Shown here: piece after piece, positions 15,106-15,495 of the stretch
Layout: every line of letters starts with the position of its first letter
Numbering within the stretch: position 1 is the first letter of the stretch
Origin: a virus
Reading direction: 5' to 3' (one strand)
Virus genome (UHGV): UHGV-0143097
DNA length: 23,240 nt
Made by a program: the position numbers and the translations under genes
The notes under the pieces: model-generated
Told to the model about the DNA's origin: nothing
What the model saw: only the letters and a program-made list of their open reading frames with translations
Databases searched by the model: none

Positions 15106-15495
15106 TTAGTCAGCGAAGGTTAAGACGAGAATTACCTTAATGATGTCTGCTACAACAGACACGGCCATAGATAAACCAAAGACGATCCAAGCCATAGAGA
15201 TGTCTTCACTACCATCGTATAGAGTTCCGTAATCACTGGTATAAGGCGTAAATGTCGCGCCTTGATACAATAGGTATAAGCTTGATCCATAGAGGATAAA
15301 TGCAGATATCCCTTGTATTGCTATGATCACCAGAATCATGAAACGAGCTGATCTATGCGCCCAAGCCTGGCTTATTTTTTCTGATAGAGATTTCGCAAGA
15401 AAAGCATGCGCTAAGCCGTAAATTGTCGAGATTGCCAACATCCCAAAAAAGCTTGCTATAGCGGTTCCAACCATAAGCGCCCCTTGCGTGATCAA
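15106..15495 (-). CDS. Small integral membrane protein translationally coupled to cI (rexAB-slot gene)
   Basis: 129-aa ORF with about four hydrophobic segments; its start codon overlaps the cI stop (ATGA); more AT-rich than cI by eye; not recognisable as RexB. Confidence 0.75.
   Translation of the reverse strand: MITQGALMVGTAIASFFGMLAISTIYGLAHAFLAKSLSEKISQAWAHRSARFMILVIIAIQGISAFILYGSSLYLLYQGATFTPYTSDYGTLYDGSEDISMAWIVFGLSMAVSVVADIIKVILVLTFAD

Follow-up and report, generated by a model that had tools for sequence, protein, structure and literature searches.

hkaS, a conserved gene for a small three-helix membrane protein next to the cI repressor of an HK620-type prophage, as a candidate phage exclusion gene

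The DNA analyzed here (hereafter the window) is a 23,240-nt stretch from the viral genome UHGV-0143097. Its minus strand carries an open reading frame at 15106–15495 that directly follows the cI repressor gene and amounts to 129 aa when called mechanically from a TTG codon (15493–15495, minus strand). A sequence-only reading of the window had correctly picked out this frame, but took it at 129 aa and described its start as an ATG overlapping the cI stop codon (ATGA). The codon at 15495 is TTG, sharing two bases with the cI stop (GTT TGA → TTGA), and as a start it is not conserved and probably not used. The coding sequence, for a predicted three-helix inner-membrane protein of 122 aa, instead runs from the ATG at 15474–15472, 17 nt past the cI stop, to the TAA at 15108–15106 (15106–15474, minus strand). 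A Shine-Dalgarno sequence, AAGGGG, lies at 15480–15485 (minus strand), 5 nt upstream of this ATG, and AAGGA or AAAGGA occupies the equivalent position in the Salmonella, Hafnia and L006 homologues. Homologues at 53–82% identity keep both the ATG and a purine-rich Shine-Dalgarno sequence and have in-frame stops just upstream of the ATG. Across 79 closely related IMG/VR loci the spacer between cI and the gene is 17, 18 or 19 nt, so that the TTG frame is not preserved. The 122-position profile of PHROG 6534 covers residues 8–129 of the 129-aa reading, and the HK620 record annotates a protein of 122 aa. From the upstream stops, the variable spacer, the PHROG span and the HK620 annotation we conclude that the ATG at 15474 is the real start. 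Translational coupling through an ATGA overlap was ruled out by the sequence at the junction, the upstream stops in homologues and the 17-, 18- or 19-nt spacer.

The gene is hkaS of coliphage HK620 (AAK28867), and the two proteins are 97% identical. Both are 122 aa long and lie at the same place after cI with the same oL/tIMM region downstream; nothing essential differs between the two, although the window copy sits in a mosaic and apparently replication-defective prophage. The name hkaS is used in the HK620 and HK630 records with the product given as “unknown,” the HK620 annotation dating from 2001. PHROG 6534, of unknown function, was the only PHROGs family returned (E = 7.5e-79, profile positions 1–122 of 122). 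A search for published work on the function of hkaS found none, the literature matches to the bare name being fungal herbarium codes. Databases have listed the gene since 2001 as an ORF without an assigned function, and its family is without a characterized member.

The window has the order N – oL/pL – hkaS – cI – oR – cro, with N to the left of hkaS and cro divergent from cI; the order in lambda is N – oL – rexB – rexA – cI – oR – cro. The earlier assignment of the gene to the rexAB slot therefore holds: hkaS lies between cI and oL, as rexB–rexA do in lambda, and is the sole gene there in the window. The cI gene (15492–16208, minus strand) encodes a 238-aa repressor with HTH_3 and Peptidase_S24 domains (Pfam), is of the HK620 immunity type and is 99% identical to HK620 cI. 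The cro gene (16315–16509, plus strand) encodes a lambda-type Cro of 64 aa from its ATG (Pfam Cro, E = 3.6e-26; HK620 Cro begins MIRM). Between them, at 16242–16287 (plus strand), lie the oR operators with pR and pRM, which repeat oL in inverted orientation (I1, 45 nt, 78% complementary), at the place where HK620 annotates OR1–3. On the far side of hkaS, the oL operators and pL (14934–15021, minus strand) were located from a repeat family (D1), a promoter scan and the HK620 annotation. They comprise three repeats of AATAC-N-GTATTT at about 14936, 14961 and 15005, and a pL-like promoter whose −35 element is at 14962 and whose −10 element ends at 14934 in the promoter scan; the oL/pL region is conserved in five of five aligned loci.

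The end of the cI–hkaS transcript, tIMM, is placed at 14994–15024 (minus strand), overlapping OL3, by transfer from the HK620 record (98–100% identical here); a simple terminator scan did not detect it, and the coordinates are those of the HK620 record only. Scans for promoter-like and terminator-like sites found none in the interval between cI and hkaS. This absence, the 17-nt spacer and the position of tIMM after hkaS in HK620 point to a shared transcript, and co-transcription of hkaS with cI is strongly implied by this geometry and by analogy. The expectation that the protein would be made from the repressor transcript in lysogens agrees with this arrangement. Just 3′ of the hkaS stop, at 15074–15099 (minus strand), RNA folding gives a stable hairpin without a U-tract, which is kept in the Hafnia-type locus, while loci L002 and L006 have other hairpins at the same place. 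A stable hairpin past the stop was seen in the window, L002, L006 and L008, its sequence differing by lineage and lacking a U-tract in each. It could be a 3′ mRNA-stabilizing structure or part of tIMM, which the HK620 record places over OL3.

To the right of the immunity region, cro is joined almost directly to rusA (16509–16641, junction near 16535), and beyond rusA come a Q-like gene, a gene for an OmpC/NmpC-like porin and lysis genes in a DLP12-like right arm. This cro–rusA junction is absent from all 5426 complete E. coli genomes searched. The window contains no cII, O, P or nin genes, and the prophage accordingly looks replication-defective.

The DNA is 98–100% identical to that of HK140, mEpX2, HK630, HK620 and HF4s, of two phages from EHEC and of two that convert to Stx2c; hkaS itself is 95–100% identical in HK140, mEpX2, HK630 and some Stx2c phages. 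The carriers thus include Lederbergvirus (HK620, a podovirus), Lambdavirus (HK630, a siphovirus) and Stx2c phages, and the presence of both a podovirus and a siphovirus indicates that hkaS follows the immunity module and not the virion type. The gene was present in 146 of the 5426 complete E. coli genomes (147 places; 2.7%), HK620-type cI had equal genome and place counts in the same set, and the 16 records in the phage collection with cI at ≥99% identity were the same 16 that carry hkaS. Only one of 185,579 species-representative genomes has it, that of an uncultured Buttiauxella. A single-sequence search of 5.8 billion proteins gave 12 clusters. An exhaustive phmmer search of 1.84 billion 50%-representatives found one other true relative; the 2000-aa repetitive proteins P0014 and P0016, also returned by phmmer, were rejected as compositional matches. 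A profile search gave 33 clusters, all 121–122 aa long, at least 51% identical and from Enterobacterales (those named being E. coli, Salmonella, Hafnia, Klebsiella aerogenes, Citrobacter and Cronobacter), and the family aligns without gaps down to 51% identity.

The order cro←|cI→hkaS→oL/pL→N was seen in every locus read (E. coli, Salmonella, Hafnia, Klebsiella aerogenes, Cronobacter, Citrobacter and Buttiauxella), with about 350–490 nt from hkaS to N, while the recombination, replication and N genes flanking the cI–hkaS core vary between loci. A cI gene was present in all 79 IMG/VR loci with upstream DNA. Identity to the window proteins is 85–95% for cI, 79–92% for Cro and 53–82% for HkaS. 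At synonymous sites, hkaS and cI have diverged equally at each depth (for hkaS and cI, respectively, piS is 0.031 and 0.025 within E. coli, and pS is 0.44 and 0.50 with the Hafnia type, 0.79 and 0.83 with the Salmonella type), which argues for long joint inheritance. The gene had earlier been described by eye as more AT-rich than cI, and a separate acquisition had been suggested on that basis. The difference in composition is real but small (GC 42.0% vs. 45.7%; GC3 40.7% vs. 44.4%), and is probably due to the many Ile, Phe, Leu and Tyr residues of a membrane protein. A recent separate acquisition finds no support, given that synonymous divergence matches that of cI at every depth, and we dropped it in favor of long co-inheritance.

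In the Buttiauxella locus, Cro and the N-terminal domain of cI are of another kind, yet the C-terminal domain of cI is the same and is again followed by hkaS. The immunity region of this locus (L106, 567–1869) is chimeric, with a Cro of 61 aa containing an HTH, and shows a recombination breakpoint at the cI inter-domain linker. Linkage of hkaS to immunity specificity is ruled out by this locus; judged from the loci compared, hkaS is linked to, and has co-diverged with, the C-terminal domain of cI. That pattern bears on the idea that HkaS is a lysogeny-stability factor, which would act like Hex on RecA-dependent cI cleavage, or would modulate a membrane or cytoplasmic protease (e.g., FtsH, controlling cII/cIII), and so tune induction or establishment. 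The domain to which hkaS is linked is that of cI cleavage and oligomerization, and the linkage persists through saturating synonymous divergence and despite the swapped DNA-binding domain and Cro of Buttiauxella; moreover, the most conserved parts of the protein, QAWxHRxARF and TFAD, are on the predicted cytoplasmic side. RexB, with its reported anti-proteolysis role, offers a model for protease modulation, and Hex is a precedent for an effect on the repressor (PMC3564112). However, the 17-nt adjacency can by itself explain the linkage, HkaS has a very small cytoplasmic surface and no sequence relation to known regulators, and in Enterobacter phage ENT1 a cI whose C-terminal domain is closely related occurs with no hkaS, which argues that the domain is independent of HkaS. 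We consider a role in lysogeny stability improbable. A related suggestion is that HkaS represents a new single-protein membrane immunity family tied to the C-terminal domain of its own repressor, for example as a membrane-anchored factor through which signals from the envelope or from an infection would act on the cleavage or stability of cI. It would explain why hkaS and this domain stay together across at least seven genera although the DNA-binding domain, cro and flanks have been exchanged, but we give it only a slim chance.

In ENT1 the related cI C-terminal domain is followed by two ORFs unrelated to hkaS, and in mEp213 the slot is empty. These two cases identify the site as a cargo slot, of which hkaS is one long-resident cargo. 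In the ENT1 slot (L011, 2470–3186), one ORF encodes 127 aa with two CxxC pairs, Zn-ribbon-like, and the other encodes 109 aa with a coiled-coil-like region and a C-terminal transmembrane helix; the pair may be a different two-gene cargo. The literature describes the lambdoid cI–N interval as a mosaic hotspot that holds Rex, BstA, Stk and Hex (PMC8585504, PMC3564112), in keeping with the earlier statement that exclusion and abortive-infection genes are common in this slot. Cargo genes transcribed with the repressor, the kind to which hkaS belongs, are well known.

The gene was intact in 80 of 80 IMG/VR loci. Its dN/dS is about 0.15, compared with 0.024 for cI, and within E. coli its piN/piS is 0.235, compared with 0.014; these ratios indicate that hkaS is under purifying selection and is evolving several-fold faster than cI. 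Amino-acid polymorphisms occur at 16 hkaS codons and are all conservative (I/V/L/M, S/T/A), and the polymorphism data give no sign of positive selection. Clusters of frameshifted or truncated HkaS have one or two members each, vs. 525, 53 and 45 for the intact forms. In the rare E. coli-type variants P0005, P0007 and P0009 (one or two sequences each), the N-terminal third is frameshifted (e.g., ...GNLNNLRLSACF...) and the frame is regained at about residue 28; these could be sequencing errors or decaying copies. That hkaS might be a non-functional hydrophobic frame, a mere passenger in the 3′ portion of the cI mRNA, is a thought prompted by the lack of any known domain and the very small family. 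It is effectively refuted by conservation, namely the constant length, a dN/dS of 0.15 at saturated synonymous sites, 80 intact copies out of 80 and the conserved Shine-Dalgarno sequence and ATG, as well as by a confident AlphaFold2 model from only eight sequences, and we give it next to no credence.

That model (pLDDT 93.4, pTM 0.78) has helices at residues 2–29, 31–38 (short and amphipathic), 41–73 and 89–121, with a small β-hairpin at 78–86, and hydropathy gives three hydrophobic stretches, at 2–27, 45–70 and 93–121. The sequence-only reading, which proposed a topology prediction, had counted about four hydrophobic segments; hydropathy and the AlphaFold2 model both give three long helices. 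In all 27 aligned members the net charge of loop 1 is +3 to +5 and that of loop 2 −1 to −4. By the positive-inside rule, the N-terminus and loop 2 would be periplasmic and loop 1 and the C-terminus cytoplasmic. Conserved features comprise a G3-x3-[G/A]7-x3-G11 motif in TM1, QAWxHRxARFIIL at the junction of loop 1 and TM2, Q54 in TM2, S65, Y67 and Y70, D110 and K113 inside TM3, and an invariant C-terminal TFAD, the protein ending ...LVLTFAD. Cytoplasm-proximal positions are the most conserved (variability 0.74–0.95 bits) and periplasm-proximal positions the most variable (1.39–1.47 bits), a difference that is modest.

Profile and structure searches, which had been suggested as the way to identify the protein, gave no homology to any Pfam, NCBIfam or PADLOC family or to a solved fold. 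There was no significant match in Pfam or NCBIfam, where similarity to transporters or stress proteins was likewise lacking; Cation_ATPase_C and TssN appeared in Pfam at E of about 0.02, far below the cut-off, and were rejected as hydrophobic noise. None of the PADLOC-DB 2.0 defense models matched at E ≤ 1, and a sequence profile search of the PDB gave no matches. Foldseek against the PDB and BFVD returned only generic helical bundles at E > 0.2, none of which we took as homology. The remark that the protein does not look like RexB was borne out by an hhalign probability of 0.6% and the lack of a Pfam match. HkaS does resemble RexB in being a predicted polytopic inner-membrane protein in the same cI–oL slot on the repressor transcript, but besides the hhalign result it differs in having no RexA-like partner gene beside it. 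RexB has four reported transmembrane helices, compared with three predicted for HkaS.

Other membrane proteins of phages and prophages offer functional parallels. P22 SieA, HK97 gp15 and T4 Imm are, like HkaS, small lone phage- or prophage-expressed inner-membrane proteins, and they block DNA entry (for SieA, PMC10461980). They differ in location, sieA lying in immI and the gp15 gene in the tail operon, whereas hkaS follows cI. In sequence, the hhalign probability against HkaS was 0.55% for SieA and 0.11% for gp15, and SieB (PF14163) gave no match. With 434 Hex, 933W Stk and BTP1 BstA, HkaS shares the repressor-operon position and the logic of lysogen expression (PMC3564112, PMC8585504). Stk is a kinase, BstA localizes to sites of phage DNA replication and an active fragment of Hex functions in solution in vitro (PMC3564112, PMC8585504). 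None of the three has been reported as a polytopic membrane protein, whereas HkaS is predicted to be almost wholly membrane-embedded. BstA also carries a DNA self-immunity element.

A further comparison is with class I holins, and it bears on the possibility that HkaS is an abortive-infection effector. Class I holins (e.g., lambda S105) are about 100–120 aa long and have three transmembrane helices in an N-out/C-in topology. HkaS is of similar size and likewise has three predicted helices, and its charge pattern fits an N-out/C-in arrangement. It lies in the immunity region, however, rather than in a lysis cassette, lacks a charged tail at the C-terminus and matched no holin family in Pfam or PHROG; an ordinary holin would also be incompatible with the constitutive lysogen expression proposed for HkaS. 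As an abortive-infection effector, the protein would lie latent in the membrane as a self-contained RexB-like or holin-like unit until depolarization or permeabilization, triggered by an incoming phage, killed the cell before phage release. The slot is shared with RexAB and BstA (PMC8585504), and to the resemblance in predicted three-helix N-out/C-in topology can be added the invariant intramembrane polar residues D110 and K113 in TM3 and Q54 in TM2, and the glycine-zipper-like motif in TM1, of a type typical of channel-forming oligomers. Against these stand the lack of a sensor partner in the operon in >100 loci, a cytoplasmic loop offering only about 17 residues for sensing, and the absence of homology to RexB, holins or PADLOC families, the fold matches being non-specific. 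On balance an abortive-infection role seems unlikely. With neither a partner gene nor a soluble sensor domain, a passive block at the inner membrane, after the manner of SieA, Imm or gp15, is favored over triggered suicide.

The strongest argument on function, by analogy, is position. Most characterized genes that share a transcript with a lambdoid repressor serve exclusion or abortive infection, the examples being RexAB, BstA, Stk and Hex (PMC8585504, PMC3564112). Hex also stabilizes the repressor (PMC3564112), for which reason the prior that the slot lends to exclusion is not decisive. We tentatively propose, as a real possibility that falls somewhat short of an even chance, that HkaS is a prophage-expressed, single-gene phage exclusion protein acting at the membrane. 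Under this proposal, hkaS would be transcribed with cI, from pRM in lysogens and from pRE while lysogeny is being established. Its translation would begin 17 nt past the cI stop at a ribosome-binding site of its own, so that HkaS would be continuously present in lysogens. The protein would expose its N-terminus and an acidic, Tyr-rich β-hairpin loop to the periplasm, and a basic amphipathic loop and the invariant C-terminus to the cytoplasm, and would probably oligomerize in the membrane via the small-xxx-small zipper in TM1. We infer that it would block a membrane step in infection by other phages without killing the cell, the step most likely being the one at which DNA or ejection proteins cross the inner membrane.

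The same geometry would equally deliver an inner-membrane protein whose purpose lies with the host. On such a reading, HkaS would serve lysogenic conversion, either by an envelope change (bile, acid, colicin or antibiotic tolerance) or by transport, with no part in conflict between phages. It is present in prophages of gut Enterobacterales, including Stx2c phages, and has been kept intact in the window's apparently replication-defective prophage. Yet HkaS has no similarity to transporters or stress proteins, and the gene is rare (2.7% of the E. coli genomes and one of the 185,579 species representatives) and was never found outside the cI slot, which speaks against a function of general use to the host. 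We regard host conversion as rather unlikely.

If HkaS does exclude phages, it would add a new family, orphan in sequence, to the few single-gene membrane exclusion proteins. It would also give a function to a gene present in about 3% of E. coli genomes, in Stx2c-converting phages and in HK620, HK630 and mEpX2, and, being a single small gene whose product is modeled with confidence, would offer a tractable system for how phage DNA crosses the inner membrane. Should there be no phage phenotype, HkaS would be one more uncharacterized moron. Specialists already expect a cargo gene in the cI–oL slot, and hkaS is a tidy candidate rather than a surprise.

Elsewhere in the window, the immunity-proximal region already bears other genes of phage conflict. 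A homologue of the SieB superinfection-exclusion protein (Pfam, E = 1.4e-25) is encoded at 13666–14247 (plus strand), just left of N, and a 66-aa ORF beside it at 13252–13452 (minus strand) is assigned in matching genomes to the RefSeq antirestriction Ral family. The N ORF, called mechanically at 14263–14628 (minus strand), is 121 aa long with a GTG start, compared with 90 aa for HK620 N, and the real start is probably an internal ATG (MTVVITYLADDNARNRRR...). Farther left lie lambdoid recombination genes, for a YqaJ exonuclease (10513–11193) and RecT (11190–11975), and an integrase gene (50–1177). Between the integrase and the recombination genes are a second S24/LexA-type repressor of 224 aa (4445–5119, minus strand) and Mu-like tail genes, including those for a tape measure and a DNA circulation protein (6899–10505, plus strand), which suggests that a fragment of another prophage was inserted or recombined here. 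At the right end of the prophage, a 296-aa ORF (22300–23190, plus strand) has an OspG-type kinase domain (E = 1e-10) and has the look of a type III effector kinase of the NleH sort.
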